Assembly: GCA_047967505.1 (NCBI GenBank)
Contig: CM106538.1
Direction: 5' to 3' (one strand)
Length of the DNA: 64,000 nucleotides
DNA from: Dipteris shenzhenensis
Taxonomy: Eukaryota
In this document: positions 2,887-40,132 of the stretch, in pieces
Numbering within the stretch: position 1 is the first letter of the stretch
How the letters are laid out: each line of letters starts with the position of its first letter
Translations under genes and position numbers: made by a program
The notes under the pieces: generated by a model
Database searches by the model: none
The model's input: the letters and a program-made list of their open reading frames with translations, nothing else
What the model was told of the DNA's origin: nothing

Positions 2887-3132
2887 CTCGGGGGGTCACT
2901 CATCATATGTAACCCTATCACGTGAGTTCAACAGAAGGATTTTTTTTATTTCTAAAATTTATAGAAATAAATATACATAAGGGACTATTTAGAATAGTTT
3001 TGGAAAAAATTTACAGATTTGTATAGAAAAGGGTTACATTTTATTAATGAAATTTTTTACAGATAAGGGAGTTTAAATATAAGCCTTGAATGCACGTGAT
3101 ATAGAGGATTTATACATAGTGACCCCCCTGAG
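2887..3132. mobile_element. MITE copy 1 (246 bp)
   Basis: TIR CTCGGGGGGTCACT / AGTGACCCCCCTGAG; perfect 8-bp TSD GTGGGGAT (2879-2886, 3133-3140). Confidence 0.95.
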
Positions 3133-8350: not shown

Positions 8351-8395
8351 ATATGATATGATCCTTCTTTTTTTAATAAGTTGATATTAATCAGG

Positions 8396-15848: not shown

Positions 15849-15860
15849 TGGTATCAGAGC
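15849..15860 (+). promoter_or_regulatory. Primer binding site (tRNA-iMet)
   Basis: TGGTATCAGAGC immediately after the LTR. Confidence 0.92.
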
Positions 15861-15997
15861 CTAGGCGGCTCTAAGCATTGAAGAGTAGAAGAGAGGCGAG
15901 GGCTTCAACAACATATGGAGTGATGGCAACATGAAGTGGCTCAACAGGAAGCGGCTCAAGTTCAATAGCTGCTGCTACTGCACCAATAATCCAGGCA

Positions 15998-18900
15998 TTG
16001 AGGATTCGCCCACCAGCCTTTAGTGAAGGCAAGCTAGATGGTACAAACTACACTTTGTGGAAGTTTAAAATTACTGCTATTCTGGATTCGTATGAGCTTC
16101 TGGAGATAGTACTGGGGACTGACCCAGAACCACAAGGAACCCCCGACCCAGTAAATCCAAGGAGCATGATACCTCATAATGCTGACCTTCTATGAGCTTG
16201 GAAATGCAAGAACGCAGATGCTCTGTATGCCCTAGTTACAAGTAGTACTGATAGTTTTTTGACCTTGATTCAGCATACATCTAAGGCAACTATGGCTTGG
16301 AACATATTGAAGAGTCAGTATGAGACGTGGAATCAGACAAGGATCCAAAACTTGGAGAATCAATTCACAGCTGAGAAGTTTAATGAAGGAGAGACAACAG
16401 ACGCGTTCATAACTTGAATCAAAAATCTATGTGACCAGATGGCTGGTGCTGGGATACAAAAGACTAGCGAAGAGCTAGTTCGGCAGTGTCTCCGGATATG
16501 TCCACTAAGGTTTGATGGACTAGTAACAGCGTTTAACACTCAAGTGAGACCTCAACCATTGTCATTTGACGAGTTTTGTGCTTTACTTATGGAGGAGGAA
16601 TTGAGGCTTAAAGCTCGAGATAGAGGCAGCAATGGGGATGCCATGTTCTCTGCCACTACGAAAGGCAAAGGCGGTTCCTCCACCAAAGGTGAGTCCTCTA
16701 CGAGTGGCGACAAAAAGAAGAAGGGTGGCAAGAAGAAGTTTTAGGGAGAATGCTTCTATTGCAAGAAGAAGGGCCATGTGATTGTAGATTGCCATGTCAA
16801 GAAAGCAGATGAAAAGAATGATATCCTGAAGAAGACAGATAAGGGGAAAGAGATAGCTAACACAGTGGATTGGATCTATTTCTCGCCATTGAGGAAGAGT
16901 GTTCCTTAGTTCAAGAAGTGTTAACCATTGATTCATGGGTGTTGGATAGTGGTGCCTCCCATCACATGACCTGTAAGAAGAGTCTATATTGTTCCATGCA
17001 GCCTCTATAGGAACCCATCACTGTGATGGTTGGAAATAATGCAAAGTGCCCTATTGAGGGTACAGGTATGGTTTCATTTGTTTTTGTAAATGGAGATGTT
17101 AAGAAACTATCTAATATGCTGTATGTTCAACAAATCAAGAGAAATTTGCTATCAGTTGCTTCCATAATTGACCTTGACCATGAGGTGAGGTTCAATAAGA
17201 CAGGAGCAAAAATTATGGATAGTGTGTTGGCACATGAGTAAGGAGGAACAACTTGTATGAGCTAAGTGCTCTTACAGCCACTGCTGGAGTGGGCACAAGC
17301 AGACTTTGGCACAAAAGATTTGGCCACATCAGATTTGCAGTGCTGAAGGAGATGCAGAAGCAAGGTATGGTTGCTCACTTACCTGCAGTAGCAAAAATCA
17401 AAGAACCATGTGAAGCTTGCATGATGCGCAAGCAACAGAGAAAGGCATTCCCACAAGAAAACAAGAATAGAGCAAACGCTCCTCTAGAGTTGGTGCATGT
17501 TGACTTGTGCAGTAAGATGCCTACATAGGCCTTGGGGGGATCTTCCTATTTTTTATTGATTGTCAATGACTATAGTAGGAAGATGTGGGTGTACTTTCTT
17601 CGCAAAAGCCTCAAGCTTTTGGTAAATTGAAAGAATGGCTACAGCTTGTTGAAAATGAAACAGGGAGAAAAGTGACGAAAATCAAATCAGATGGTGGTGG
17701 TGAGTTTGTTTCTACAGAGTTTGGAGATTTTTGCAAGAGCAAAGGGATCAAGAGACAAACGATGACACCACATATGCCTTAGCAAAATTTGGTTGTTAAT
17801 GTCGAATGTGGACCACCATGGAGATGGGGAGGTGTATGTTGAAAGGTGCTCGATTGTGAAACCGCTTTTGGGCTGAGGCTATCAATACTGTAGTTTACAT
17901 CCTTAATCGTAGCTATACAAAGGCACTCAAAGGTAAAACACCACATGAAGCTTACAACAGTAAGAATCCATCTGTCTCCCACTTCAGAACCTTTGGGTGT
18001 GAATGCTATGCGCATGTACTAGACAAAGAGAGAAACAAGCTACAACCAAAAAGCACCAAATGTATCTTCTTAGGCTATTGTGATGAGAAGAAAGCCTATA
18101 AGTTTTATGACCGAGAGACAAAGAAGATCATAGCAAGCCACGATGTGGTGTTTAGGAAGCAGCCATATGCAGTGGAGGTAGAGAAGAGCTCTTCCACTTT
18201 ATCATCAAGCGAAGAGGTAATTCGCTATGGACTTGTCCCAGGAGCTATAAAGGAGGAGGAAATATCAGATGATGAAGGTGTAAGTCACCAACCTATTGTT
18301 ACACCATCGGAAAAGCCATTGCTACGATGGGTAAGGCACCTTTATGACCATGATAACCATATGCCTATGTTTGTTGAGCAGCATCCAGATGGACCAAGGC
18401 AGTCTCAGAGAATTGAGGAGCAAAGGAGAGCTTCTGCTCACATAGTCAATATGGCCTTGATGGCTAAGATCATTGCAGAAGTAAAGGAGCCTGCAAGTTT
18501 GGAGGAAGCACTTGAAAACTGAGATTGGAAAAACGCTATGTAAGTAGAATATGACAGCATCATGAAGAATGAAACTTGGGAGCTAGTAGATCAACCACCT
18601 AATAGAAAGGTTATTGGCACCAAGTGGGTTTGGAAGGTAAAGTACAAGGCTAATGGGACTTTGGAAAAGTACAAAGCGAGATTGGTTGCATAAGGATTTT
18701 CGCAGGTTGAAGGGTTTGATTTTCAAGAATCTTTCACTCCGACTACTAGAATGACCACTATTTGCACAGTACTATTGGTGGCTACTCATAAAAAGTGGCC
18801 AGTTTATCAAATGGATGTAAAATCAACATTCTTGAATGGTGACCTCAAGGAGGAGGTGTACATGGCTCAGCCACCTGGGTTTGAGGCCCCCCATTTTGAG

Positions 18901-20001
18901 AACAAGGTATGTAAGCTGAAGAAGGCTCTATATGGGTTGAAACAGGCCCCAAGAGCATGGTACCAACGGATACACAGATTCTTTCATAAATTAAACTTCA
19001 AAAGATGTGCCTCAGATGCTAACTTGTATGTGTATAGGAAAGGTGGAAACTCTGCTATTATGTGGATGATCTCCTTATTACAGGTGACTATGAAGACATG
19101 ATCCAACAGGCTAGAAAGGCATTGAGCATAGAGTTTGAGATGACAGATTTAAGCTTGATGCACTACTATTTGGGGATTGAAGTCTAGCAAGAGCCAGGCA
19201 AGATCTTCATCTCTCAGTAGAAATATGCAAGGGAGACCTTGAAGGCGTTTGGTATGTCTGAGAGCAAGGAGATAGCTACACCTATGGAGGTAAATGCGAG
19301 GTTGTCTATGGAGGATGCCTCACCACCAACAGACATCGAGAGGTATAGGAAGTTGGTCGGCAGTCTCATCTATTTGTGCAACACTAGACCGGACATCAGT
19401 TTCGCTATTGGCATTTTGAGCAACTTCTCCAATAAGCCCAGGAGAATCATTGGAATGCAGGGATGTAGATGCTCAGGTATGTGAGGGGCACTCTTGATTA
19501 TGGCATCACCTATGATACGAGCACTTCCTTGGCTGGACATTGTGACTCAAATTGGGTTGGAGATGTTGATTCTAGGAAATCAATTTTTGGATATTGTTTC
19601 TCTTTAGGTTCAGGTATCTTTTCTTGGATCAATAAGAAATAACCAACAGTGGCATTGTCTTCTACCGAGGCTGAGTACAAAAGGTAGCATGTTTTGCTGC
19701 TTGTGAAGCAGTGTGGCTGAGGAGGATCTTGTGGCACATGGGAGTGCAAGAGGATGAGGCAACTGTGCTGAGGTTTGACAATCAAAGTTGCATGGCCATT
19801 GCTAAAAATCTAGTGTTTCATGCATGCACAAAACATATAGAGATTCAGTATCACTATGTGCATGATTTGATCGAAGAAGGGATAGTGGAATTGGTCTACT
19901 GTCCAAGAGAGAAAAATGGAGGAGATATCTTCACCAAGGCACTTGGGAAGGATCAGCTTCAAGGTCATCTTCAAAGACTCGGCATTGGGCTGAGAAGGTA
20001 G
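15998..20001 (+). pseudogene. Copia gag-PR-IN-RT-RH polyprotein, many stops/frameshifts
   Basis: KLDGTNYTLWKFK, CCHC knuckle, [51 protein letters not shown]. Confidence 0.93.
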
Positions 20002-20774
20002 TTTACCTATGGGTTGACATTGAGGGGGGGTGTTAGATATGCTCAATGCCCCAACCTCCTGGTAACCACCAGTGGTCCAAGGTGCTCAACTTGTAAGGCC
20101 CCCATATGAGGAGAATCCATGTGTGAGCTCAGGAGTCCGACATTGGATGGATCTTGACTTGCATGTCAAATGAGGTCTATCAATGAGACCGTTGATGGTA
20201 GAAAGGTGATTGTGTGGGAGCCCCTTATTCTTGCTAGGGCCTGGGGGGTCCTAGGGGGGCCAACGGCCCTCCTATTAGGGGTTTGGGGGCGGAAGCCCCC
20301 GAAGCAACGCTACTGTTGGGGGTTTGGGGGCGGAAGCCCCCGAAGCAACGCTATAGGGAATATTCCTTGAATATTCCATGGACAACTAGGTTGACTGGTC
20401 GGCTCCATCAACTAGGTCGACTGGTCGACTCCATCGACTACGTTGATCCAACTACTGCCCTCATAGCTATAAAGAGGTGACTTCCCTAGTCTATTGTATC
20501 AGATCAGTTCAGATCAGATCAGATCTTCCAACTAGTAGCTCTTCACCTAGTATCTGTCTAGATCACCATCTAAGCTCCACTATGGGAGTGCACGGGTGGA
20601 CGGAGCCATCATCTATACTACATCGGTATTGAAGGAAAATTTTGTTCATATCCAATTTTGCTATGTACTCTCTATTCTTTGTTCAGTTTCTGTTTTGCTG
20701 CGCCGTGTAATGTAACAATATACTGACTCATAAGGTTGGTATATATCGAACTTTACAAGTCTGTTAAAGGTCTA

Positions 20775-23700
20775 TGAAGAGAGTGGGAGAGAAGGAAAAA
20801 GGCTCACTTACAGCTTTCTCACATACACAATGGGGGAATATACAAAAAGGTGGAGGCTGAAAATAGTTTTTCTCTTCTTAGTTGTGAAAGCCAAAAGAAC
20901 TCTAAGTACAAAACAATAGGTGAACCCTCTATGTGGGTCTCAAACCAAACTCAGCTAACTATGGTGGCATATTAACTAAGCCACTAACTAGAATACATAA
21001 AGATAGCTGTCATCTAGCCATTATTCATGGGCGGTGTACCAACCACATCTTTAGCTAACAAGTCGGTGACATAAATGCACAATGGTCACCCTGGAAAATC
21101 ACTGGAGCTCGATATCTCAACACCCCCCCTCGAGCTCAATCCCAATTCCTGCACACCAAGAAGGTCTCTGAACTTGCGCAACTTCTCTGCACCCAATGCC
21201 TTTGTGAATATGTTAGCTACCTGATCCTCTGTACTGACATAAACTAAATCAATAAAACCTACTAGAACCTTCTCCCACACATAGTGATAATGCACCTCAA
21301 TGTGCTTTGTTCTAGCATGATAGACTGGGTTATTTGCCAAGTGTATACTGCTCATGTTGTCACAATAAATGACAACTGGCCCATCTATAGGTTGATGCCT
21401 ATCATAAAGTAGCTTATACAACCAAGCTACCTCACATGCAGCCATTGCTGCACCCCTGTACTCAGCCTCTGTGCTCGACAAGGAAACTGTAGGTTGTTTC
21501 TTGCTACTTTAAGTGACTGCAGCACTCCCAAAAGAGAACATATATCCACTTGTAGATCGTCTATCAGAAATACTACCAACCCAATAAGCATCAGTGTATC
21601 CATGCAACTGTATCTGAACCCCAGTCTCATAAAATAGTCCATAATACAATGTGGACTTCACACACCTCAGTATGCATCTAGCCACATCCAAATGCGGTTT
21701 CCTTGGAGCTTGCATAAACTGACTTACCAAACCAATAGCATAGCTCAAATCTAGCTTGGTAATAGTCATATAAATCAAACTTCCTACTATGCATCTGTAC
21801 ATAGTAGGGTCTTCTAGAAGCTCACTTGCATCTGTGCTCAGCATCACATTCTGCTCCAAAGAAACTGAAATAGGCTTACAGCTTTTCATCCCACATTTGG
21901 ACAGCATGTCCAATCCATACTGCCTTTGCAAGAGCCATATCCCACTTGTGGATCTAATCACCTCAATGCCCAAGAAGTAAGAAGTAACACAGCTCTCCCA
22001 AATCCTTCATCTCAAAAATCTACTTCAATAGCATTCTCACATGAAGGATATCTTCATCCCTATCACCTGTGAGGATCAAATCATCAACATAAATGACAAA
22101 TAGCCTAATACGTTTCTCTGTTTTTCTCACATAAAGTGAGAAATCTGCCTTGGAAATCTGAAATCCAATAGTGACAAGATATTGTCCTATCTTGTCAGAC
22201 CATGCTCTGGGTGCTTGCTTCAAGCCATACAAGGCTTTCTTCAACTTGCAAAAAAACTCAGGATGAACAGCATGGACATAACCTGGTGGTTGCTCCATAT
22301 AGACCTCTTCTTGCAAATCACCATGCAAGAAGGCATTCTTTACATTTATCTAATGTAAAGACCATCCCTTTAATGCAGCCATAGCAATGACTGCTCTTGT
22401 GGTTGCCATCCTTGCAACAAGACTGAATGTTTCTTCACAATCAATGCCATATGTCTGTGCATACCCCTTGACAACTAATCTTGCCTTGTATCTATTCATA
22501 GAATCATCTGCATTGTGCTTCACCTTATAAACCCACTTGCAGCCAATTGCATTCTTGTCTTTAGGCAAAGGCACCAATTCTCATGTAGCATTTGATTCCA
22601 AGGCATCCATTTCTTCATCCATGGCTTTCTCTCATTTTTCTTTTCCCATGGCTTGCTCAAAAGAAGTGGGTTTTGGTTCATGTATCACTTTGACCATATA
22701 GGCATAGTGAATGGCTGTAAATCCATCATATTTCAGCCTATCCACAAGATACCTAGATTTGGGAAGACCTGCACAAAATAGGCTCACTACCAGGTGCTCT
22801 CAAAGCATCCCTTGTCTTTCTTACTCCAGTAGAAGGAATACCCAACTCATCATCAAGGCTCTGTTCTGAGCCACTGGATTCACCATCCACATAAGAGTGA
22901 CCTACATTCACATCAACCATGGGCTGATCTACTTTCTCTTTTCCTTTTCATGATACTTGCATACCATTATCTGCATTGCTTTGAGGAGATCCTCCTGATC
23001 TCAATTTGCCTGTCCATGGCGAAGTATGTGAACCACTGCTTGAGGACACTACAGGTCCACTAATATTTTGTGATTGCTGTTGTGAATTCTATGCAACATT
23101 ACCAATTTTTGCATCTACATCATCAATCACATTTACTGGTTTATACCAGCTGTGCTCATCTCATCAAAAACAACATCTCTGCTCACTGTAAACTTACGCA
23201 TAGAAGGGTTATAGCATCTATACCCTTTCTACTACAGAGAATAACCAATGAAGATGCACTTCTCAACGTTTGGCTCCAACTTGGATCTCAACTCATCTGG
23301 CACATGAACATAGGCAATGCAACAAAAAACTTTCAAATGAGAAATATCTAGTTTCCTACCAGTATACCTCTCCTTTGGCATCATGCCATGTATTGCTATA
23401 GTGGGAGTCCTGTTCATTATGTAGACTACTGTAGTAATTGCTTCAACCCAATAATAATTTGGCAGGTCTTTTTTCTTAAGCATGGCATGAGATACCTCTC
23501 CAATATGCCTATTTTTCCTTTCTGCAAGTCCATTTTGTTGTGGTATGACTGCATGAATATTGCTACTTTATGCCATGCTCTTGCAGGAAACTTGCAAATT
23601 CAATTGAGAAGTACTCTCCCCCTCCATCTAACCTTAGGCATTTTATTTGCAGGCCTGTTTCTTTTTCAATGATAGCTTTAAAAGCTTTGAAATGCCCAAA

Positions 23701-24405
23701 CACTTCACTTTTCTTTTTCATAAAATACACCCAAACTTTTCTGCTATAGTCATCAATAAAAGTTACAAAATAATGATAGCCTCTAATAGATGCAACTTTA
23801 GTAGTCCACAAATCAGAGTGGATTAATTCCAATGGCCTCTTACTCTCTTGAACATGTCTAGGAAATGGTTTCCTTGCCTATTTTCCAAATTGATAGGCTT
23901 CATATACCTTATGCATTTTTGCAAACTTGAATTAATTTAAGTCACTGTACATTAACATGACCAATGAGTTTATGCTAGATATCAATATTTGCAACTAGAC
24001 CGGTCCCATGTGCAAACATTGTTGCACTCAATTCAGGCATGTTCGCATCCAACGTAAACATCTAGCCCTTCTTCTTCCCTTTTTCTATCAAGCGACCTTT
24101 ATTTTTCATATCCTCAACAAAGCATCCATGATGATTAAATCTGACCTGCAAGCCCTGCTCAACCATTTGACCAATAGAAATCAGGTTCTTGGTGATATTC
24201 AGGACATGAAATACATCAGACAGGTATTTCTTTTTTCCATGCTACATAGACAAATGAATTTTACCAATTTTCACAATAGGATGTGCACTATCATCACCAG
24301 TCTCCACAAATCCTAGTCTTTCCATTTTCCTTGCATCTTGCATCCATTCTGCATGACATGTCATGTGGTTTGACGCACCTGAGTCAACATACCACACATC
24401 ATTGC
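20775..24405 (-). mobile_element. Ty1/Copia family B, 5'-truncated, with 3' LTR
   Basis: 3' LTR 21122->20775, PPT 21123-21130. RH (SSTEAEY, RTKHIEVHYH), RT ([21 protein letters not shown]), IN, and protease WYVDSGASNHMT at ~24360-24395, where homology stops. Confidence 0.93.
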
Positions 24406-24485
24406 TTTAGGATCTCTTATGCAAGAGAGAAAAGCAGATAGTATGGAGAATCAAAAATTTGATTACTGTAAAACTGATACAATAG

Positions 24486-25122
24486 ATGGAGCTGCTTCCC
24501 AGCCGTGCGCTCCTATGTGAGGAGCTTCGATGGCATGCTAGAAATAATAGAGGATAGAGGCTGGATGCTAAGGAATCTGGCGTGGGTGTGAAGCTCACTT
24601 CACTGGGTGGTGAGGAGTATTATTATAGCAAGTCTGCACCTGCAATTACATGCAACCAAGCTGAGTATTCGGCACTCATTTTTGGGCTGAGAAAGGCACA
24701 AGAACATCACGTCAAGCAACTTGAGGTGCAAGGAGATTCTCAACTAGTGTGTGAACAAGTTAGTGGAAGGTGGAAGGTGCGGAGCAAAGGCTTGGTTCCA
24801 TGACATCGACAAGCATTGGAACTTTGCAACCAATTTGAAGAGGTAAAAATTCAGCATATCCCTTGAGCTCAAAATCTAGTTGTTGATTTCTTGGCACGTG
24901 AAGCTTGTACTTCAATCATGCATGATGCGAGTGGAAGCACCACCCCAACAAAGCTACAAGCCACGAAGGAGGGTAATCATTTGTAAGGAATGCAAAGGTT
25001 GTGGTCATCATGAAACTAAGTGTTGGGCATATTTGATACGAGTTTACCGACTTCAAAAGATCATCAGAAAGGTCCTCAAGGACATTGCTCAAAAGAAGGA
25101 TGCTAGACCGCACACCCCTTGA
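24486..25122 (+). pseudogene. Archaeal/cellular-type RNase HI domain followed by a Zn-knuckle-like motif
   Basis: SFDG (frameshifted FDGAC.NN), TCNQAEYSALIFGL, LEVQGDSQLVCEQVSGRWKV, IQHIP*AQNLVVDFLA, then CKGCGHHETKCW. Confidence 0.85.
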
Positions 25123-25490
25123 AGAAATAGCATGGCAATTACAAGAACTGGAAGAAGCTAAAGGTGATGTGCAAGCTCTTTAACTGTTGGCATTTGTCAT
25201 GGCATTCTTGTTTGCCTTGATGAACAACCTCATGCAGCGCCATGTCTCTAACCCTTGCTTGTAAGATGGATGCGATATCATGAGGGTTGGTCCTTTTAAG
25301 ATTGTCTATGAGCTATTCTATGTTGAAGATTCTTCCCGTGTAGTATTTCACAATATGCCAGTCACACCCTACCCTGCCTATGTGTGCTTTGTGGATGTAT
25401 CCTCACCCGATTTTTAGTTCAAGCTTCCTCTTTCTATTGTTTGTAAATAGATAACCCTCGTTTTGTCTCTCTCTTTTCCCTTTTCCAAGC

Positions 25491-28400
25491 ATGGCAGACA
25501 TTCCTATGTTCTATGGATGGGTTGAAGAAAATCCAAGTGAGTATCTTGTGGCGTTCAAGTGCCATTGTGTTTCTCTCAACTTTCTTACTGAAGAAAGATG
25601 GCTGTCAGTTCTTCCCACATTTCTAGAGGGTTTGGCTCAAGTGTGGTATGAGAAGCAGGCTGAAGATGTTTGCCAAAGTTGGCCAAGGTTGATAGCAGCT
25701 ATGATTGAGTATTTCAGCAAAGAAGAGGAGCCAAAGAATGTGTACCTGCAGGTGGCAAACCTGAAGAAGTTAGAAGCGGAGACAACGCATCATTATGTGG
25801 ATCGAGCGACCGTGATCCTAGACTGTTTAATTGCCACGTAGAAGAACAATGCTGGATTTTGAGTTGGAATGACTCAACATGTGCTAGGCTACCTTGTAGC
25901 AGGAGCAAGTGACAAATTTTACCTCAAGCTTAATGGGAGAATCCAGAAACTATGGTGCTAGTACATGAGATTGCTCAAAGGTTTGATAAAGTTTAGTCTG
26001 ACCCTGCTTCAAAGAAGATGATTGTCCCTCCGCAACCCCCTCCACTCTGGCAACAACAACATGGGGGGTCCACCCTAGGGGCATACTCCCACCCCCCATT
26101 AGGGATGTATCCACCGGCTCCACCTCAAATGTATGGTCCTCCCTTAGATGCTTACCCTCAACAAGGTGTATATCCTCACCCTCCACCTAGAAGATTTCCC
26201 TAGCCTTGCCCATGAGCCCCCCTCCTTTCTACTGGACCCTCGGCCCCTCCAGCTAAAGAGACCCCTCCTACAAAAGAACTCGGAGTCAATGACCTAGCCA
26301 AGGCCCTGAATGATCTTTGGCTTGAGATGGTGGGCATCAAAAATCAAGCCAATCGCCCTCCAAGAGAATGAGCCAATGTTGTATGCTACGAGTGCCACCA
26401 AAAGGGTCATTATTGCACCAAATGTCCCAATATTCCAAGGGTGAATCTTCTAAGTGAATTAGGCTCTAAGGATTCTGATGTAGAGCTCCTTGACCTTGGG
26501 AAGAGAAGTCATACCACCTCGAACTCCTCTCCAAACCGTAGACTAGGCCGCCCCAGGAAGGTCTCCTTCTCAAAGCCCTCAGATGCTGAGATGGCAAACC
26601 CACATACAGAGAAGACTAAAAGATCTCGTAGGAGTAAGTGGTCGCCCTTGGATTTTCCCATCGACTCAGGGCAAGAGGACTATTCGGTCATTCAGGACCT
26701 TGCTCATCGGTCTTTGAGCATCACGCTCCCTCAACTAATAGCATTAAGCCCTAAGGTGAGACATGAGCTACAACAAGGGCTCTCAACAAGGAGCAGCAAG
26801 AAAAAGCGAAAGGTACAAGAGGTCTCTTCTATCTCTAAAGAAATTGATCGACACCCACATACAGTAGATGTCATCATAGATAATTGCCATGTCAAAAGAG
26901 TGTGTGTTGATGGGGGAGCTGCATGTAATATCATGGTGCCATGAATCATGAAGAAATTGAATTTGAAATGCACAAGGCATTCCTCCACTCGAATGAAGGT
27001 AGCAGATGGTCAACGACTCGCCACCCTGGGAGTCATTGAGGATTTTCCCATCACTATCAATGGGTGAACTACCACCGTCAATTTCGATGTACTGGACATC
27101 GAAGATACAGGCAGGAGTTACCCAGCCATACTCAGGAGACCATAGTTGAGAAAGAGTGATGCAGTCAGTTATTGGAAGACAAGGCACATGTCTTTTGGTG
27201 CTTCAAAGGAGAAGATCCCGATGCAACCAGGTGCCACGGAACCAGTAGAAGAAGAGGAGCAAGACAATGATACTCTCTCATCCTTGGTGTGTCTGAATCA
27301 ATGGAAGAATCAGATGAGGGGGAGGAATTCTTAGAGGAGGAAGTTTACATGATGGGGGTGTCTCTGACCTCGCTACCTATAGAAAAGGTAACAGCTAGTC
27401 CTCAATAGCTTGAATCCATGCTTTTCCTAGACCTCACTCCAAGTGAGAAAGACGAGTTCCTAGAAATGTTCAAAGATTTCCCTGGCCTCTTCGCAACTAG
27501 CTACTGCCACCTTCACCATGTGACTGCCATAGAGCACAAGATAGAGATGAAGCCTGATGCGAAGCCTATGGCTCATAAGTATCAGAGATTAGGGCTCCTA
27601 CAAACTGATGCTTTGCGCTCAAAGTTGCAGAAACTTGTAGAAGTTGGGTTTATTGTTCCAGTTCACAATACTGAATGGGTTTCACAATGGTAGTCATCCC
27701 AAAGAAAAATAACAAGTGGCAGGTCGGCATCGACTATAAGAAACTCAATGCAGCCACCAAGAGGGACCATCATCCTCTTCCCTTTCAAGACCTCATTCTT
27801 GAGAAGGTAAGTGGTCATGAGATGTATACTTTCTGTGATGGTTACTGCGGGTTTTATCAAATCAGAATTGGTGAAGAAGATGTGCTTAAAACCACATTTG
27901 CCACACCTAGGGGGACATTTGCATTCAAAGTAATGCCATTTGGCCTCACCAATGCTCCTGCTACCTTTCAAAGATTTATGTAGATGGTGTTTGCTCCTTA
28001 TTTGGGGTATTTATTGGAGGTGTTTTTAGATGATTTTTGTATATTCTCGTCATGTAAGGAGCATGTCATGAAGGTTGGGTTGGCCTTCCAAAGGGTCAAT
28101 GATGCGAATGGCAGTCCCAACTCTAAGAAATGCACCATTGGAGCCACTCAAGGGAGGTTACTAGGACATATTGTCTCATCCAAGGGCATGTAGAAGCTAT
28201 CCTCAGCTCTCCCCGCCAACAACCAAACATCAGGTACGCTCATTTGTCAATTTAGCAGGATACTATCGCTGCTTCATTGATCAATATGCTACTTTGACAT
28301 AGCCCATGACTATGCTATTGAAAGATGGGGTTGATTTCTCTTGGAATGAGGATTGTGATCATGGGTTTGCACAAATCAAGAATGCTCTGGCTTTAGAACC

Positions 28401-28586
28401 CATTCTATGCAATCCTGATTGGTCAAAGACTTTCTATATCAATCCTGGGTTTGGTGAGCACACTCTGGTGGGTATTATTCTCCAACAAGGGGAGGATCGG
28501 TTCATGTATCCTGTTCGATTTGCTTCTCGACAATTGCTTGAAACTGAACGATGCTACTCTGAGGCTGACAAGCACGCCTTGTCTTT
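25491..28586 (+). pseudogene. Gypsy gag, protease, RT and N-terminal RNase H
   Basis: Retrotrans_gag-like FLEGLAQVWYE; CYECHQKGHYCTKCP; VDGGAACNIM; IDYKKLNAATKRDHHPLP; MPFGLTNAPATFQR; FLDDF; PVRFASRQL. Confidence 0.92.
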
Positions 28587-29210
28587 CACAACAAGACAAA
28601 GCACCCATAGACGTGCGCACAGACGCATTTCATGAACTAAATAAAAAACTTACGGGCGTGTCTATTTGCGTGTCTGGAGACCCACGTCTAATTGCGCATC
28701 TATATATCAGACTTACACGCGTATAGACACGCAGTTAGATGCAAAGATAGACGTGCTTATAAACGCGTTTATAGACGCACATATAGATGCAAGTCGAATA
28801 GACAGACGCGAATATAAATGCATTTTTAAACGCACGGATAGATGCGCTTTTTTTTTATATTTTAAATTTTACAGAATACTGTGTATGTTGTGTATGCTAT
28901 ATATAGTTACAAGAATCCAATATCCACATTCTGTAATTCAATTCTTATAGCCAACCGCATTTTAATTACAATTCCAAATAAAATATTACAACTCCAAAAT
29001 GCAATAAAATTAAAAGCTCAAAAAGTGCTTGTATATACATATAGCACGAAGCTAAGCCACGTCATGTGGCTTCAAGTACAAAAAATAAGGAAGCTAAGCC
29101 ATGTCATGTGGCTTCAAGTACAAAAAATAAGAGGAGTCTATATACAAGAGGCATGAAGCCAAGCCAGTGGCTTTAAGTACAAAAAAGAGTAGGTAGCACT
29201 ACTTCTACGA

Positions 29211-30678
29211 CTAATCCTCGCTGCCTTCCACGCTCCCTTCTGTGCTTCCTTCTGCGCTCCCTTCTACGCCTCCTTCCTCGTCTTCCTCGTCGTCTTGTGC
29301 ATGGGCCTGTAAACAAGGGACAACATATATCAATGTATGAAAAATCAAATCTTTACTTATAATTTTGGCATTATTTAATTACTTTCAAATACCTGGGGGG
29401 CCGCTCCAGTAGCTCGGGTATACTGATCCTCAGTAATCAACCCATCATCATAGAAGTGCCTCCATGTATCTCCTCTGCGATGGTGGTGGTGGTAGGCTGT
29501 CTCCACTGGAGTAAGGTATCTGCCCACGATCTCAAGCTACATGACCGCGACACCCTTTGTGGAGGGATTAGTACAAAGAAACAACCAACCTCCTAATAAA
29601 CTACATAAGCAATATAATTTGAGATCGATACTTACAAATTGGGCCTCCCATGATTCAACACCCCCTGCTCCAAAATGCGCGCTTCCATATTCCTCCATCT
29701 GGATCCTCCGTGCCTCCATGTGCTGCAGACTGGGGTCCTCCCTCGCTGACTTCATTGCCTTCTTCCACTCACGCTTGTGAGCGGTGTGGGGCGGGCCCCT
29801 TGGTGGTTGACCTGCCTCAAGCCTGGCAAGCTCCGCTAGTGCCTGCCTCTTAAGCGAAGATCTTTTATTGCTAAGTATCGTAACAATCTTTGACTTCCCC
29901 CATTTATCTGTGAACTGGCGATTGGGGGGGTTAGGATACCTAGAGCGAACAGTATCCAGGGTCTCATTAGCCAACCTCTTTGGGTGGTCTTTATAGTGGA
30001 TAAAGCAATCTCTGTAATTGTTAGCAATTACAGAGCGCATGAAGGCCATGATGTCCTTCACCCGTGCATCCATCAAGATGCCTCCTGCCTGAGTGATGTC
30101 ATAATAAATCATACCATCACCCAGAGGCACATCTAAATCATCTGAATCATCATCCTTCTCACTGCCACATGGCCCAAAGCATTGTGCCATGCATCCCCCA
30201 CCGCTCTCCCTACTACTACACCTGCTACCCTGTCGTGTCGAGCTCGTACGCTGGCCACTCGTAGCTAGGGACTGCACGGGACTATGCTGACCACTCGTAG
30301 CTAGAGAACTGAGTCTCGACGGCTGGGGAGTACGTCGATGGCTCGCCGAGACAGACGGACCTCCTGACTTCATGGGGGAAGGGGCATAAGACGGGATGGC
30401 AGAAGGGACATAAGACGGCATGGGGGAAGGGGCATAAGATGGTACGGGGGAAGGGGCATAAGAAGGGGCATAAGCACCTGTGCTGACTCTGCTGGGGTGA
30501 TCTCAGGCAGTGTGGGGTGGCTTGGAGTCTATAGTGCCGACTTCTGGGGAGTGTTAAGAGTACCCGTCATATACCCGTATAACTCCGCAGGACTAGGAGG
30601 GTGCCCTAAAAGGTTATATATGTCCTTCCAAATAGATTCCCAGGGATCAGGTGAGCTAGAAGCGCTTCCTGGCCACAT
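29211..30678 (-). pseudogene. CACTA second gene (TnpA/Transposase_24-like), 3 coding exons
   Basis: Predicted exons 30678-29636, 29536-29393 and 29306-29211 with GT-AG introns. S/P-rich N-terminus with a stop/frameshift, core RYPNPPNRQF..HFGAGG, acidic tail. Homologous to 42775-44300(-). Confidence 0.75.
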
Positions 30679-31208
30679 GTTGAACTGGAAAAAAGGAAAA
30701 AAATCTATTACTGATGAGCTGAGAAGAAAGGGGAAGAAAAGAGAGGCTTACTGTTAGAGCGCGTCTATAGACCCGTCTGATTTGCGCGTCTATAGACACA
30801 TCTAATAGAGCATCTAACAGAGCATTTAACAGAGCGTCTAACAGAGCATTTAATAGTGCATCCAACAAAGCGTCTAATAGAGCATCTATAGATGCATCTG
30901 TGTGTGTCTGCAACAAGCCAAACACGTGGTTAGACGTGCCTGTAGACACGCTTTTAGAGGCGCCCTGAGACGCGCCTATAGACGTGCTCCGACTGACGAG
31001 ATTTCTAAAAAGTCGAAAAGGACATTGCGCCCGACACAAAAACGTGACACTCATACCTAGATCCTGCGCTTCCTAGATACGAGAAAGTACAAAACTGGAG
31101 AGAGCAAACTTCCAAACAAGATCAACTGCAAAAAGACTTACTTGGATAAAGGTATGGAAGGTTCTTCTTTCTTTTCCAAACTTGCTTCGTCTCCTTGTTC
31201 GTCCTCCT

Positions 31209-31454
31209 CTCAGGGGGGTCACTCATCATATGTAACCCTATCACGTGAGTTCAACAGAAGGATATTTTTTATTTCTAAAATTTACAGAAATAAATATACA
31301 TAAGGGACTATTTTAAATAGTTTTGGAAAAAATTTATAGATTTGTATAGAAAAGGGGTACATTTTATTAATGAAAAATTCACAGATAAGGGATTTTAGAA
31401 ATATGCCTTGAACGCACGTGGTATAGAGGGTTTATACATAGTGACCCCCCCGAG
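31209..31454. mobile_element. MITE copy 2
   Basis: Same TIRs and body as copy 1; perfect TSD GTCCTCCT (31201-31208, 31455-31462). Confidence 0.95.
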
Positions 31455-31842
31455 GTCCTCCTCTCCTTTAAGCTTAGAAGTAAGTGTATGTACGGTCCCT
31501 TTCTCTTGAGTGAAAGCTTGGAAGTAAGTATGGGAGGCTCTCTCTTAAGCTTCGAATCTATGGTTCTGCTAATAAAGAAGGAAGGAAGCCGTGCACGAAG
31601 TTTAAGTAATGTAAAGAAAAGCAAAGCGAGCGGCATGCCGAAAAGTAGGTTTAAAAGCCATGTCTATAGTCGCATCTACTAGCGCGTTTATAGGCGCGTC
31701 TAAATACACAGAGTAGACGTGCATTTAGACGTGCTGTTAGACGCGATGTTAGATGCGACTATAGACGTGGTGATAGACACAACACAGAGTTTAAATAAAA
31801 CATTTGAAGAAGAGCAAATTTGGTGGGTTGTTTGTTTGTAGG

Positions 31843-34800
31843 ATGTCTCCATCTTCAACAAGTAGCTCCAGTGAGGATGAATCCCTCCGTATCCACCATC
31901 GCAAAATGTGGTTGGAGCAAAAAATCAAATGTCTGTGTGATCGATGTCGAGGAAACATGTATCGTGCACGTAGGATTACACTCAATCGTATCTCAAAGTA
32001 TGGAGAATGGGATGTGACCGTAAACAGGGTAAGGGTTTGTAAGTTAAGGTTAATTGAGATACCTATGGGTGTTCATATGTTTGAGTTATGATCCCGTTTT
32101 AGTTTGATACAGGATGCAGTGCCACACCCGCACATGTTACCCTATGCCCGTCATGAGGAGGCAAAGCATCGGCGATATGAGGTGGGATCTTCAGGAGGGA
32201 CTGTTACGGATGCATGGAGTGATGGTGATAGTAGCCCTCTGCCATTATCTCATGAAGCCGTGGAGGAGGAGGTGTTTGATGATATGGTGTGGGATTTATA
32301 TGTCCATCAAGGGAGGGATAATAGCATGGAGCAGGATGATCTTTTTACCGCAGCATTGACTCCACTGTTTGAGGGGTGCACATTCTCTATTCTACGTGCC
32401 TCCCTTGAGTTACTAAACTTGCAAACCATCTATGGATGGAGCAATTCAAGTTTGAATGCATTACTCAAGTAAGCTTTAAAGTCGATTTTGCAAACATGGT
32501 GAATTATGCTAGTGGGTCAATTACTCGAATGCTTTTCCTCATTTATGGTCTTCACGTGCAGGCTATTGTGTAAAATGCTTCCAAGGGAGAATAAATTACC
32601 GACCTCAAGAGATATGGCAAGGCAACATGTGACCTCTCTTGGAGGATTAGATTACAAGCGCATCCATGCATGTGTCAACGATTGCGTTTTGTTTTGTGGA
32701 CTACATAAGGATGCAAGAGAGTGTCCTACTTGTGGAGAGGCAAGATATAGAGCAGATCTCAAAACCTTGGACGTGCCTCGTAAGGTATTGCGACATTTTC
32801 CCATAATCCCTCGCATCCAACATATGTTCAAGTGCAAATCTATTGCAGAGCTCATGTCATGGCATTCCTCCCATCGATCAACTGATGGCAAGTGGAGAAC
32901 TCCCGCAGACTCTCTTGCGTGGAAGCATATTGAAGACACATGGCCAAGCTTCAAGGAAGAACCTAGGAGCTTGAGACTTGGATTGGGTATGGACGGTGTG
33001 AACCCATTTGGTCTCAAAAGCACGTCTTACAGTGTATGGCCAGTGGTATTGGTAAATTACAATCTTCCACCCTCTATGGCTATTAAGAAAGGACATGTCA
33101 TGCTGTCCGTTCTAATTCCAGGGAAACATAAATTCAAAAACCCTAATGTTTATTTGGAGCCTTTGATTGATGTGCTAGAGATACTTTGGAGAGGTATCGA
33201 GGTGCATGATGTGAGCAGGCCTCCCTCTCATGAGACATCAACTGCAAAGCAGTCTTGATGTGGATGATGCATGACTTCCCAGGCTATGGCAAGTGTTCAG
33301 GTAAGCATTGCATTTTTTAATTATGAATAGGCAAAGGACGTGGCACCCTAAACCCACCTTCCACTCTTAATTGCATCTATTGTTTAGGTCTCACTACATC
33401 GGGTTACCATGCATGTCCTGTTTGTGGTCCTTCGCTAGTTGCCTCACGGGCAGACGCATTGAATAAGGTCATCTATGAGAATCACCATCGATTTCTCCCA
33501 CCTAATCATCCTAGGTATGTTGCCCCTTGGAATGAAGTCCTCCCACAATCACTCACCGCGAGAGATTGGATGAGAATTTGGGACGGTTCCATGACGACTC
33601 CACCACTTGGCATGAGCCGGTAAGGGTTTGTAACTATTGGCTGGAAGTAAAGATTGGCTATATTGGTTGAAAGTAAAGATTGCACGCTAACACTTTATTT
33701 TGTTTAGATACTCCATCTTTTATCGTTTACCATATTTGTCCCACCTCAAGATCAATCACCTGCTTGATCCCATGCATATCTTCAAGAATGTGGCATCTAC
33801 CATTTGGGAGCATTTGAATGGGACACGAGATTCGGCAGGCATAAGGGAGGATCTACGTACCATAGGGAGGATGCGTGAAGCTTGGCCTCAAGAGAGACCA
33901 AATGGGCGTGTTTTTTTACCTCGTGCACCGTGGATGTTATCAAAGCTAGAGATGGCGACAATGAACCGTGCTATTACTACAATTTGTACTCCCACTGGAT
34001 GCATGAGGTGTTTGAAGGGAGCCTTTACAAAGAGCAAGAAAAGAGGTGTAGAGCAATTATATGGCTTGAAATCTCAGGATTGGCACAAGTTGCTCCAAGT
34101 AAATATTTTATATGCATAATATCTTTTTCCTTTCAAATTTGTGAGTGAATAGCTATAAGCAACTAATCAACCACCTCCTCGCGGGTTCAGTTCATACTAC
34201 CTACTAGCATTTCACGTAGTGCATCAAAGGACGTGAAAGATTGTATTTACAAGATGGGCGAGCTTGTGAGGTATGTGAGCTTAAAGGAAATAGATCCCAC
34301 CACGCTTGAGAATGCTCGCGTTATGTCAGTGGAGGCGGTTTGTTTAGTGGAGGAGACATTTCCACATTCTATTCTCACAAGCCAACTACATCTCATAGTA
34401 CCTTTGGTGGATGAGATTGCTATATGCGGTACTATACATGCACGATGGTTGTTCTTCCTCGAGCGCTTCATGAAGACCTTGAAGGGCTTCGTGAGACAAA
34501 ATGCAAGACCCGAAGGTAGCATGGCCGAGGGTTGGTTGGTACAAGAGTCACTTGTATATATTTCTGAGTTTCTTGTCGATGTGGATAGCTCTCTCCCACG
34601 ACTATGGAGAGATGATGAAGACCTAAGGATGACCTCTATTGTGCCTCAAGGAAAAGGACGCAACAAAGTAATAGACACGGAGTTGCATAATAGTATCAAC
34701 CTCTTTTGCGTGCTTAATAGTGATGTGATGAAAAGATGGGTGACAAGATACGAGGATGCAAAGGCAAGAAGACAAGAAGAAAGGGCCCTCTTTCGTACAC

Positions 34801-35819
34801 GCCACGGATCTCGTGTGCCATACCCTCAGCATCTAAGAGCACTTCCAAAGGATATTCATGTGGATTGGCTACTTGATGAAATGGAGAAAGCAGAGAAAGA
34901 CGAGGGGATGCATATCACAATGGAAGAATGGGAGTATGCTAGGGGATGCATGAGCAAGGTCGGTATATAGAATGTTATGCATAAGTTAGGAGCTTTTTAT
35001 AATTTAGATTGCTTATTTAATTGATTTTTTCTTGGTGTAGTGCACTATGTTCAATGCTATATGGTGTGAGGGCAAGCATTTTCGAACACAACGGATTGAT
35101 GATAAGAGAAACACACAAGATTGTGGCGTCATTGCTAGCTTTGAGGGAGCCAATGGAGCCATGGATGATTATTGTGGCATAATCCAAGATATCATTATGC
35201 TTGACTTTCGACGCTTCTTTGTGTATGTTTTGGACGTAAAGTGGTTTAAGGACGTGGTGGAAAGAGGCCCTAATGCAACAATCAAACACCATGCAAGTGG
35301 CTTTGTAACTATTGACTCCACAAAGTTTTGGCAAAGTAGGAAGGACACACTAGTACTACCGCAACAATGTGAACAGGTATTGTGCACACACATAAAAATA
35401 CTCGCTTTTAAATATTTGATGCAAGAAAAGTAACATGATTGTATTTGTGTTTGAATTAGGTTGTCTATCAACCAATGGTGGATAATAATAGATGGTGGCT
35501 TGTCATACCTATTATGCCACGTTCCAAAGTGATGTATAGTACATTTACTAATATGGAGCATATGGAGGATGATCATGGCCATGGACATGATGATGACCGT
35601 GATACAAGAGAGGAGGATGATCATGAGATAGGAGATATAGATATTGAGGCCATTACCCGTGAGGACGAGCCTACCATTGGAGATGCTGATTTCGATGAGC
35701 ACATGAGTGGCACAAGTAGTAGTGGGTTGAATGTATTTGTAGATCTAAACACTTGTTTGGATTTTGAAGTAGATAGTTTGGCAAGGGTTGATCTCATTGA
35801 GGATGAGATTGAACCGTAG
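31843..35819 (+). pseudogene. CACTA transposase (TnpD/Tnp2-like), multi-exon, at least one frameshift near 33235
   Basis: CLCDRC, IHACVNDCVLF..CPTCGEARY, LGLGMDGVNPF, NYNLPP, HDFPGYG, HLLDPMHIFKN, GLKSQDWH, FFLERFMKTLKGFVRQNARPEGSMAEGW, DYCGIIQDI; GT-AG introns. Confidence 0.93.
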
Positions 35820-36277
35820 CCCCACGATTGTATTTGGAAAAACTATTTTACATATTGTCTCATTCTCCTCATCTCACTTAATTCTTGTATATGTGGGCTT
35901 GCAAAAAATTATGTGCTTTGGTAATCATGGGCAATGTTTGGAAAGCAATGATGTACACCAAAATCTCACTTTCTGTATTCTCTGGAGCGCGTCTATTTAC
36001 GCGTCTAAATGCACGTCTGATTCTCAGTGTAAATGCGCAAATAAATGCCCTAATACATGCGCAAATAGACGTGCTAATAAACGGGATGTTAGATGGGCCC
36101 GTAGTTTCTCAGGTCAGACGCACAAATAGACGCAGTGATTTACGCGCAAATAGACGAGCTTTTAAATGTGCATGTAGACGCGCCCGTAATTTCTCTACTA
36201 AAGCAATGCCTATAGACGTGCCCGCTATTTTGCGCATCTACCAAGCACGTCTATAGTTGCTTTGTGTTGTTGTGTTT

Positions 36278-38040
36278 GGTGACATTGAGAAATTTAACCA
36301 TTATGTGGCTGGAAAGTCCTTCATTATAATCTCTAGCAATGGTCTTGCAAAGCAGGTTCTTCAATCACCAAATCCCATGGGCTGGTTGGCCAAATGGTTG
36401 GTAGTTCTATAAGAATATGATTTTTCTTTCAAAATTATAAAAGGGGGTTGTTCCAACTTGAATAATGCTTTTATTGATTTAGAGGAGTGCCTCGATGTAA
36501 CCCTTGTAGCGGCCATAGAAGTTAGGGATCTATGGTATGGTGGTATCTACAAGTTTCTGACTACTTTCTCCTTTCCTCCAAAAAGTACTAGCTATGAGAG
36601 AAAGAAGATTCATAGAGATAGTAGGCGCTACACCCTCCTTGATGGGGTGTTGTACCATCAAGGCATGGATGGGGTACTAAGATGGGCCATTGATGCAGAT
36701 GAAGTGCCTAAGGTATTGAAGCATTATCATGATGGATTTTGTGGAGGCCACTATGCCAGTGACTATACAGCTAAGAAGATTTTACATGCTGGGTACTATT
36801 GGCCGACTTTGTTCAAGGATGTCACTATGCATTACAAAACTTGTGAACCATGCTAATTCTTTGGTAGGAATGATTTGCATCCTGGGCAACATCACCCAGT
36901 GATGTCGATCCATTTGTTTTAGAAGTGGGGAATAGATTTTGTCGGGCCCCTGCCCATGACTGCCCGCAAAAAGAAGTATCTTTTGGTAGCCACTTAGTAT
37001 GTCACTAAGTGGGTTGAAGCTAGCACCCTCCCCACAGCAAATGGTAAGGTAGTTTCAAATTTCATATTTGAACATATATGCACAAGGTTTGGGACACCCA
37101 TGGAAATAGTATCTGACAATGGGAGTCCATTCTTAAATGAAGTAGTGGAGTTACTCATGGATCGCATGGGTATTGATCATCACACTTCTAGCATCTATTA
37201 TCTAGCATCCATGGGCCAAACGGAGCGGACCAATGGCCTCATTTGTAAAACCATGGGAAAAATGGCTACAAGGAATAGGAGCCAGTGGGATCAGAAGGTC
37301 ACAGAAGCCGTATGGGCTTACAACATCACTCATAAAACGTCTATAGGTCACACTCCTTTTGAGTTGGTGTATGGTACTGAGGCCGTTTTACCACTAGAGA
37401 TAGAGATTCCAGCCTTGAGATCTCGGGGGGGTCACTCATCATATGTAACCCTATCACGTGAGTTCAACAGAAAGATTTTTGTTATTTCTAAAACTTACAG
37501 AAATAAATATACATAAGGGACTATTTAAAATAGTTTGGGAAAAAATTTACAGATTTGTATAGAAAAGGGGTACATTTTATTAATGAAATTTTTTACAGAT
37601 AAGGGACTTTAAATATAGGCCTTGAACGCACGTGATATAGAGGGTTTATACATAGTGACCCCCCTGAGCTTGAGATTGGCACAAGATAGAGGATGACAGA
37701 AAATGAACATGTAGAGGCCAAATTGGCACAACTTGAGAAGCTAGATGAAACCCGATGCCTTGCACTACATCAAACAGAGATCCAAAAGAATCCACAAAAG
37801 GCCCGCTTGGATGCTAAGATTCGCAAGGGATGGGAAAGACACTTTGCTGAGGGGGATGTTATGCTATGCTTTGATAATAGATTGGACTACCAAATGGATA
37901 AGAAGTTTCTACCACTATGGACCGGTCCATACAAAGTAATCAAGGAATGTAGCAATGGGTCTGTACAAGTTCAGGAGCTACATGAACCATATGGCAAGAA
38001 GGTGATCAACAAGCATTATCTCAAGCCCTTCTTTGTGTGT
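36278..38040 (+). pseudogene. Gypsy RNase H C-terminus and integrase
   Basis: KFNHYVAG, LAKWLV, HDGFCGGHY..GYYWPTLFKD..CEPC, WGIDFVGPLP, IVSDNGSPF, GQTERTN, TPFELVYGTEAVLPLEI, WTGPYKV. Confidence 0.92.
37422..37668. mobile_element. MITE copy 3
   Basis: Same TIRs and body; perfect TSD CTTGAGAT (37414-37421, 37669-37676). Confidence 0.95.
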
Positions 38041-38304
38041 GATGGTCCCAGGCATGGAAATGTTGTGCATTCCCTGCCTGGGGGGGAATTGTTATGGATA
38101 AATTTGACCAAAGTAAAAAGGCATAAATATGAGTGTATAGTTGTATGTGTGGCAATAGTATAATAAAATATGGAGTGCATAGGGCCTAGGGTTGAGGTGG
38201 CAGGGCATGACCATGTGCCACCCTTCCATGTAAGAGGACCCATAAGGTGTGTTGTATGTAATCCATGGTAGCAATATTATAAAATTGGATATGGGAGACG
38301 AGAG

Positions 38305-39430: not shown

Positions 39431-40132
39431 AGGGTTTGGGGGTTGGGTTTAAGGTTTGGGGATTGGGGGTTTAGGGTTTAGGGTTTAGGATTTAGGAATT
39501 GGGTATTAGGGCTTAGAGTTTAGGGTTTGGGAGTTTGGGGTTAGGATTTGGGGGTTTGGGTTTTGGGTTTTGGGTTTAGGGTTTAGAAGGCCAAGATTAG
39601 GGTTTAGGTTTTAGGGATTAGGGTTTGGGGTTAAGCTTTAAGGATTAGGGTTTGGGGGTTAGGGTTTAGGGTTTAGGGCTTAGGGCTTAAGATTTATGGT
39701 TTAGGGTTTAGGGTTTGGGGTTTGGGGTTTGGGGTCTAGGGTTTAGGGTTTAGGGTTTAGGGTTTAGGGTTTGAGGTTTAGGGTTTAGGGATTAGGTTTA
39801 AGGTTTAGGGGTTAGGGTTTAAGGTTTGGGTTTAGGATCTAAGGGTCAAGGATTAGGGTTTGGGAGTTTTGGTTTAGGGTTTAGGGCTTGAGGGTTACGG
39901 TTTAGGGTTCGGGGGTTTTGGTTTAGGGTGTAGGGTTAGGGGATTCAGTTTGAGGGTTTGAGGGTTTGGGTTTAGGGTTCAGGGGTTTGGGTTTAGGGTT
40001 TAGGTGTTGGGGTTTAGGGTTTGAGGGTTTGGGTTTAGTGTTAGGGGGTTTGGGTTTAGGGTTTGGATTTTGGGTTTTGGGATAAGGGTTGAGGGTTGAG
40101 GCTTTAGGGTTGGGGGTTAGGGTTTAGGGTTT
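39431..40132 (+). repeat. Interstitial telomeric array (TTTAGGG)n, degenerate
   Basis: ~700 bp of TTTAGGG and variants (TTTGGGG, TTTGAGGG). Confidence 0.95.

Follow-up and report, generated by a model that had tools for sequence, protein, structure and literature searches.

Tat elements of the Ty3/gypsy retrotransposons can carry an extra, archaeal-type RNase H (aRH) besides the RNase H native to the element (gRH). In the accessible parts of Ustyantsev et al. (2015, PMC4408406) and Neumann et al. (2019, PMC6317226) this extra domain is given positions within pol only, three in number. An arrangement outside pol was described by Biryukov and Ustyantsev (2023, PMC10508981) as 'structure #4', in which the aRH forms an open reading frame (ORF) of its own ahead of gag; it was found in Tat B elements of the mosses Calohypnum plumiforme, Ceratodon purpureus, Pleurozium schreberi and Syntrichia caninervis, and in Tat C of Selaginella tamariscina. 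The same study reported that the native RNase H is degraded in all aRH-bearing Tat structures and that, in a survey of 92 green-plant genomes, every aRH-bearing long terminal repeat (LTR) element falls within Tat, and it raised the question of how an RNase H encoded outside pol can function. In the accessible text of Prokopeva et al. (2026, PMC13468544) the structure #4 arrangement is named 'pre-capsid', and Wang et al. (2021, New Phytol 232:11) are also credited with it. Here we analyse a stretch of 64,000 nucleotides from Dipteris shenzhenensis (assembly GCA_047967505.1, contig CM106538.1; the whole stretch is hereafter called the window), in which an aRH sequence lies upstream of the gag gene of a Ty3/gypsy element.

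The Pfam domains of this element follow the order Retrotrans_gag, RVT_1, RT_RNaseH_2, Integrase_H2C2 and rve, which is the gag, protease (PR), reverse transcriptase (RT), RNase H (RH) and integrase (INT) order of Ty3/gypsy. To judge from its sequence, the locus is probably the 5' remnant of a dead, nested element of Tat kind, in which the aRH was encoded as a separate ORF ahead of gag. A preliminary description of this DNA had proposed such a separate 5' ORF and had suggested that it would be a new position of the extra RNase H. The first idea agrees with our results, the relatives being stand-alone ORFs of 154 residues and contigs from other copies chaining the aRH towards gag. The position itself is already in print, as structure #4 (PMC10508981) and, in the accessible text of PMC13468544, as 'pre-capsid'. 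The element is a further family of a rare known arrangement, and its architecture is not new. The features concerned are the following.

24570..24986, + strand: remnant of the solo aRH, corresponding to residues 17-154 of the intact 154-residue relatives, plus the TAA stop
24880..25122, + strand: knuckle frame, in +1 relative to the aRH frame, 80 codons from stop to stop, overlapping the last 35 aRH codons
25123..25490, + strand: non-coding leader from the end of the knuckle frame to gag; a CT-rich tract immediately precedes the ATG
25491..26944, + strand: gag into protease, with a weak Retrotrans_gag match, the gag knuckle at 26384-26425 and VDGG at 26906-26917; broken by frame changes
27409..28190, + strand: reverse transcriptase (RVT_1), with FLDDF at 28023-28037 and one in-frame stop
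28303..28586, + strand: first part of the native gypsy RNase H (RT_RNaseH_2, E 6.6e-15), cut by the CACTA insertion
28587..36274, + strand: CACTA (En/Spm-like) DNA transposon of 7.7 kb with Transposase_21 and DUF4218; not a part of the retrotransposon
36278..38163, + strand: rest of the native RNase H, then integrase with H2C2 finger, core and C-terminal part; interrupted at 37419-37676 by a 250-base repeat

The order aRH-gag-PR-RT-native RH-INT on one strand is that of structure #4 or 'pre-capsid' elements, and the independent small aRH ORF, the degraded core of the native RNase H and the absence of an aRH within pol are shared with structure #4 as well. The window element differs by its missing LTR and primer-binding site (PBS) borders and by a CCHC knuckle frame that lies over the aRH stop. 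The copy in the window is inactive: it is cut at about 24577 within the aRH, it carries stops and frame changes together with two insertions, and both LTRs are missing. The loss of the LTRs follows from the cut 5' end and from the sequence after 38163, where GA repeats and then a telomere-like array are found and nothing recognisable of the gypsy element remains. The gag ATG at 25491, the VDGG protease motif and the FLDDF motif of the RT could all be located as first described, and the native RNase H, resuming at 36278, does continue into the zinc finger of the integrase, with an extra RNase H absent from the junction.

The aRH was identified by several routes. Its uninterrupted piece, 24558-24800, matches Pfam RVT_3 with an E of 6.4e-12. 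When read through from 24522 to 24966 with stops as X (P0001), the sequence matches RVT_3 (PF13456) with an E of 1.4e-21 and 77.1 bits against a cut-off of 21.6, covering profile positions 30-123 of 123, and a tblastn alignment of residues 17-154 of the intact relative P0159 extends over 24570-24983 at 78% identity (E 1.3e-68). The closest solved structure by sequence is Halobacterium sp. NRC-1 RNase H1 (4e19; P0159 residues 7-129, E 1.6e-17), other close ones being M. tuberculosis Rv2228c (3hst) and S. tokodaii RNase HI (2ehg/3aly), in agreement with the earlier statement that an archaeal-type domain lies here outside pol and upstream of gag. On these matches the identity of the domain is certain. 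It belongs to the same sequence family as the archaeal-type RNase HI proteins (4e19, 2ehg/3aly and the N-domain of 3hst) and has the same motif set, the difference being that here it is carried by a eukaryotic retrotransposon and that the window copy is truncated and interrupted.

All four RNase HI motif regions had been claimed for this sequence, and three of them are indeed homologous to those of the relatives: NQAEY at 24654-24668, GDSQLV at 24732-24749 and N..D.LA at about 24876-24899. The aRH frame is interrupted by in-frame stops at 24801-24803 and at 24864-24866, the latter immediately preceding the last catalytic motif region, and a further stop lies at 24555-24557, upstream of the homologous part; the frame terminates with TAA at 24984-24986, 504 bases before the gag ATG and on the same strand. 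Homology to the relatives begins only at about 24570-24577, the first 16-19 or so aRH codons being missing, and the first catalytic motif is therefore absent from the window copy, which does not carry the full D-E-D-D acid set with the subtype Arg. The window aRH is an inactive wreck and not an intact ORF. It is also the only domain of its kind in the window: a profile of 39 RNase H proteins, run against 1,466 six-frame segments, gave one match, at 24558-24800 (E 1.9e-32). The next-best segment had an E of 2.7, and in the surviving sequence neither the PR-RT nor the RH-INT interval, nor the part following INT, contains an extra RNase H.

The fourth motif region, 'FDG', did not stand, as it is encoded in a frame other than that of the aRH and within a separate repeat. 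Two features upstream of the aRH are relevant here.

~21509..24405, - strand: truncated copia element, whose homology to a second copia copy in the window stops at 24405
24410..24576, no strand assigned: fragment of an unrelated repeat, flanked by the truncated copia and the RNase H remnant and containing the 'FDG'-coding letters 24526-24534

The repeat fragment has a diverged copy at 40816-40921, with the letters that encode 'FDG' included; the local score of this match is 23, compared with 13.25 ± 1.5 and a maximum of 18 in 100 shuffles. Logan contigs of four public runs (X1 to X4), which contain only 0.10-0.11 of the sampled words of the stretch, were aligned to it at an identity of at least 80%, and depth over 24410-24576 was several-fold higher in three of the four runs (bins 24400-24599). 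In run X1 loose contig ends are seen both ways at 24577: the contigs fitting after this position are preceded by other sequence, of which a 30-letter consensus encodes the true N-terminus of the relatives, and the contig fitting before it continues into unlike sequence. Because the relatives align only from about 24570, and because of the contig breaks in X1, the depth and the second copy, we assign 'FDG' elsewhere: the three letters arise by chance within a repeat that is unrelated and more abundant, and the aRH gene is cut within its 5' end.

The locus is a stack of broken elements: the copia ends at 24405, the repeat occupies 24410-24576, and the RNase H is truncated at about 24577. Such a pile of truncated elements could also arise if an RNase H fragment from ORF2 of a long interspersed nuclear element (LINE), from a host gene or from other transposon cargo had been brought beside the gypsy element by deletion, and RVT_3 domains are known both from LINEs of plants and from host genes. 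We consider this very unlikely, as the same order of aRH, leader and gag/PR is found in other copies in all four runs, one of them with an intact aRH start, and the relatives are stand-alone ORFs with a start of their own. A LINE or the 3' end of another element had been named at the outset as a possible source; LINE-type domains (APE, non-LTR RT, zf-RVT) were present in 0 of the 150 best representatives of the protein search given below, and no such context, non-LTR RT included, was found upstream in the window.

An exhaustive protein search over 1.84 billion representatives returned 10,500 proteins at E<=0.001, the best 150 of which were examined and include a single close relative (69% identity over 96 residues). 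By Pfam, eight of these best 150 have a Tat-type context and none a LINE-type context or a zf-CCHC domain, the rest being mostly cellular proteins in which several RNase H domains are combined with a SAP or hybrid-binding domain. In the top-scoring representatives (P0008-P0054 and others) a SAP or hybrid-binding (Cauli_VI) domain is followed by two to three tandem RVT_3 domains, and these proteins rank first only through the adding up of several domains.

A word-indexed search covered proteins of 81-259 residues and gave 13 matches at E<=1e-8 among 21 candidates. Eight of the 13 are close relatives with 62-79% identity, all on short ENA contigs (532-1063 bases), and two of these eight are complete stand-alone ORFs of 154 residues (25 and 8 member sequences), in which Met precedes the first catalytic motif by seven residues and the end coincides with the position of the window aRH stop. 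The intact 154-residue relatives P0158 and P0159 match both PF13456 and PF00075 and show all four motif regions when aligned to 4e19 and 3hst, the catalytic columns having been assigned from PMC4408406 and general knowledge rather than computed. The remaining six close relatives are partial, five having the same start and an earlier end and one consisting of the C-terminal part only. Two shorter relatives end at the window stop position 24801-24803 and one at 24864-24866; judged by these ORF ends, the places of the two stops in the window aRH are also broken in other copies.

The size range of 260-2000 residues yielded no close relative, the five matches all having 37-45% identity. The three of them that were domain-scanned are Tat-type polyproteins or fragments thereof, in which the native RNase H precedes the extra one and, in the one protein that reaches that far, integrase follows the latter. 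With no close relative in this size range, the aRH of the window family therefore appears not to sit in a polyprotein. Scans of JGI metagenomes with two aRH alignments produced 113 and 62 pattern matches, none of which was confirmed.

The contigs of the four runs also bear on the association of the aRH with gag, which had been called unproven on account of the missing 5' LTR. Of the 30 bins, every one is covered in three runs and 29 are covered in X1; most contigs belong to the 80-95% identity classes, which points to a repeat family in the sampled material. An X1 contig of 1027 bases aligns to 24577-25407 at 95% identity and has an intact aRH N-terminus upstream; it therefore represents another copy and not the window locus. 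Contigs of X2, X3 and X4 cover 24738-25255, 25263-25459 and 25378-25534, respectively, and a contig of X3 joins 25301 to 26703; it represents a copy with gag deleted and so connects the pre-gag leader with the protease. Taken over the four runs, the order aRH-leader-gag/PR is present at 81-97% identity, and this chain of contigs indicates that the association is not peculiar to the locus.

Relationship to Tat was assessed from both RNase H domains. When the native RNase H of the window was aligned, as unjoined fragments, with four Tat-context gRH sequences, the first and third catalytic positions, identified here too by means of PMC4408406 and general knowledge, were non-acidic in five of five. 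Searches of the PDB with its first piece gave weak matches to the RT connection region of murine leukemia virus (MLV) and xenotropic MLV-related virus (E ~0.01) and those with the second piece gave noise; neither was used. For the acquired domain, 163 proteins supplied 253 domains, and a FastTree tree of all of them unites the 11 Tat-context aRH domains in one clade. We also built an IQ-TREE phylogeny under a site-heterogeneous model from 73 of the 253 domains, the others being left out for time; the 73 comprise all 6 from the window family, all 11 from a Tat context, 22 chosen at random, and for the rest first domains from a hand-picked set of 34 mostly small hits, as far as these yielded a domain. 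Here the window family groups with three small solo 'ribonuclease HI' ORFs with a support of 87 in the Shimodaira-Hasegawa-like approximate likelihood ratio test (SH-aLRT), and this group adjoins the clade of 11 Tat-context aRH domains (SH-aLRT 93). In the approximately unbiased (AU) test, the window family and the Tat aRH as one clade were not rejected (p 0.843), and the tree constrained in this way surpassed the one from the free search by 22.4 log-likelihood units. The Tat-type loss of acids in the native RNase H and this AU result do not bear out the earlier suggestion of a possibly independent acquisition in a non-chromovirus lineage; on these comparisons an independent capture of the RNase H may have taken place but would not be needed.

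The neighbours of the family in the IQ-TREE phylogeny (P0055, P0096 and P0077/P0175, from JGI metagenomes) are stand-alone 'ribonuclease HI' ORFs of 122-146 residues, found on 7-19 contigs each. The complete ones begin just before the first motif; in one of the three cases it is a longer cluster member that shows this. These three multi-copy ORFs may be solo aRH ORFs of retrotransposons of other plants.

Several observations weigh against a separate pre-gag aRH in a Tat-kind element, and they concern both the linkage and the Tat assignment. With respect to linkage, no one contig bridges the aRH into gag, the connection being a chain of short contigs, which could collapse a short LTR lying within the 504-base interval; two X4 contigs end at 25179 and several others near 25407 and 25455; and the 5' LTR and PBS are absent from the window, so that an aRH between PBS and gag is not seen there. 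These points leave room for an aRH that would instead be the 3' end of a structure #3 element, with the 504-base interval holding a PBS and a short LTR shared by the end of this element and the start of the next, and with short contigs that merely collapse the copies of the 3' LTR and the 5' LTR. Tandem elements sharing an LTR are uncommon. Structure #3, or 'post-integrase' (Tat H and I), is known from conifers, Cycas and Ginkgo (PMC10508981). Like the window element it encodes the aRH outside RT-RH-INT as a separate ORF, which is placed after integrase there and 504 bases before the gag ATG here. Some features would suit it: moss LTRs are only 256-356 bases long (PMC10508981, Table S3), a purine-rich tract lies at about 25150-25176, near the end of the two X4 contigs, and the window element is cut right after integrase, which leaves room for an aRH at that place. 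No aRH remnant follows the integrase in the surviving part of the window element, however, and nothing like 24410-25490 recurs in the window, save for one weak match of the unrelated repeat. Moreover, contigs of X1 and X2 cross 25179 unbroken, and reading by eye, without a tRNA-matching test, revealed no convincing LTR end with a PBS. Depth over 25000-25499 is not above that of the aRH and gag bins in the four runs and is flat in X2, which is a weak argument. On balance we regard this post-integrase origin as quite unlikely.

With respect to the Tat assignment, it is based on the arrangement and on the RNase H domains and not on a phylogeny of RT or INT. The last catalytic Asp, which Tat gRH retains according to the accessible part of PMC4408406, is kept in the four Tat-context gRH sequences compared and is not Asp in the window copy. 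Degradation of the native RNase H is read from one decayed copy, its status at the level of the family being inferred. In addition, the RT has 43% and 30% identity, in two pieces, to one Tat-type polyprotein, with FLDDF here and YIDD there, and in the FastTree tree the six family members (support 0.993) lie among prokaryote-like RNase HI, apart from the Tat-context domains. The RT motif and the FastTree position would also suit a non-Tat, non-chromovirus lineage that took up an archaeal-type RNase H independently and at the same 5' position, and several acquisitions or shufflings are discussed in the accessible parts of the Tat aRH papers. We hold such a convergent capture to be improbable, in view of the position beside Tat aRH in the site-heterogeneous tree, an AU test that favours or does not reject one clade, the Tat-type degeneration of the native RNase H and the finding that the aRH-bearing LTR elements of 92 green-plant genomes are all Tat (PMC10508981). 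A look-up of the integrase piece in the Atlas provides leads only: five of its 30 nearest named clusters combine Integrase_H2C2 and RVT_3, in a minority of their members (36% at best).

The preliminary description had treated 24486-25122 as one 'RNase H + Zn-knuckle ORF'. The knuckle extends over the aRH stop in the +1 frame, and there is therefore no such single ORF; the region consists of two overlapping frames, of which the RNase H frame ends at 24984-24986. The CCHC knuckle itself is present as claimed: CKECKGCGHHETKC at 24982-25023 is canonical, with exact C-x2-C-x4-H-x4-C spacing, the codon for its first Cys (24982-24984) runs into the stop of the aRH, and within the frame 24880-25122 it is followed by a basic, helix-like tail. 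A six-frame search of the window gave five matches to this pattern, compared with none in 30 shuffles, and the other four are all gag knuckles, three of them in copia elements and one in this gypsy element. By its pattern, the upstream knuckle is therefore a real nucleocapsid-type sequence. Its BLOSUM62 local score is 52 against the gypsy gag knuckle and 28, 29 and 35 against the three copia knuckles; at the nucleotide level, the upstream and the gag knuckle regions score 13, which equals the shuffle maximum of 13. The frame had no Pfam match at E<=1, zf-CCHC included, and no relatives among proteins of 44-140 aa, a result that says little, given that overlapping small ORFs are rarely called, and an Atlas look-up gave weak leads only. 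The terms zinc, knuckle, CCHC and frameshift do not occur in the main texts of PMC10508981 and PMC13468544, figures and most supplements lying outside this search, and going by those main texts a knuckle frame abutting an aRH gene is so far unreported.

In working copies of a Tat-kind element with a separate pre-gag aRH, the 154-residue protein would be translated from the genomic RNA as its first ORF and would supply RNA/DNA-hybrid cleavage in trans, replacing the RT-linked RNase H of the element. Supply in trans would be needed because the native domain has lost catalytic acids; following the literature on the family, it would keep only a tether-like spacer role. A more elaborate version, which we think unlikely, would have the aRH coupled to the knuckle and helix of the +1 frame, either by a rare frameshift fusion or as a small partner, so that the RNase H is carried to the genomic RNA and into the particle, and would extend the host group beyond mosses and Selaginella. 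If true, the coupling to the knuckle would answer the question posed in PMC10508981 on the working of an RNase H outside pol.

Retroviruses and Tat retrotransposons have each gained a second RNase H while the original decayed. As in the Tat/Ogre/Retand elements with aRH inside pol (structures #1 and #2) and in retroviruses with their tether and RNase H, there would be two RNase H domains per element here, of which the acquired one keeps its catalytic motifs, as seen in the intact relatives, and the native one is degenerate. In contrast to structures #1 and #2, the acquired domain is unfused to the polymerase and would have to act in trans or be otherwise recruited. A second RNase H as a separate gene is rare, and it raises the question of how the enzyme reaches the reverse-transcription complex. 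To this rare type the window adds a family with intact 154-residue relatives in public data and with a nucleocapsid-like knuckle frame abutting the aRH gene. The copy being dead and the architecture published, its value is that of a pointer to the intact relatives and not of a discovery. Ogre/Tat elements likewise have an additional sense ORF that precedes gag at their 5' side, encoding a plant mobile domain (PMD) or Tr28 with a coiled coil; the content here is an RNase H and not a plant mobile domain, and no PMD was found in 80 ORFs of at least 90 codons chosen from the 142 of the window.

The surrounding DNA is of plant type and dense in transposons, with several copia elements, one CACTA and one gypsy element, and an Rfam scan of the entire window gave 0 matches. 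The CACTA element at 28587-36274 is bounded by terminal inverted repeats that are imperfect and by a duplicated TTT target, and its Transposase_21 and DUF4218 ORFs are broken by stops. The 250-base repeat occurs in three copies that are 92-94% alike (2886-3134, 31208-31456 and 37419-37676), one of them within the gypsy integrase and one within the CACTA element, and resembles a miniature inverted-repeat transposable element or a short interspersed nuclear element. The array of the plant telomere-type heptamer following the gypsy element, (AGGGTTT)n at 39431-40132 on the + strand, comprises 101 copies with 73% matches, and an array of complementary orientation at about 57741-58640 is ~78% alike to it; the two are interstitial, inverted relative to each other and 18 kb apart. 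A short frame at 9025-9495 matches a protein kinase (PK_Tyr_Ser-Thr, E 2.3e-06) and is possibly a host gene fragment, and a tandem array at 6574-8373 has a unit of ~542 bases with sub-repeats of 261-294 and copies up to 96-98% alike. Finally, a young-looking copia element at 44309-49415 has 300-base end repeats that are 97% alike and 4807 bases apart, and an open gag-PR-INT frame of 725 codons followed by RT frames; an older relative of it lies at 15280-20717.

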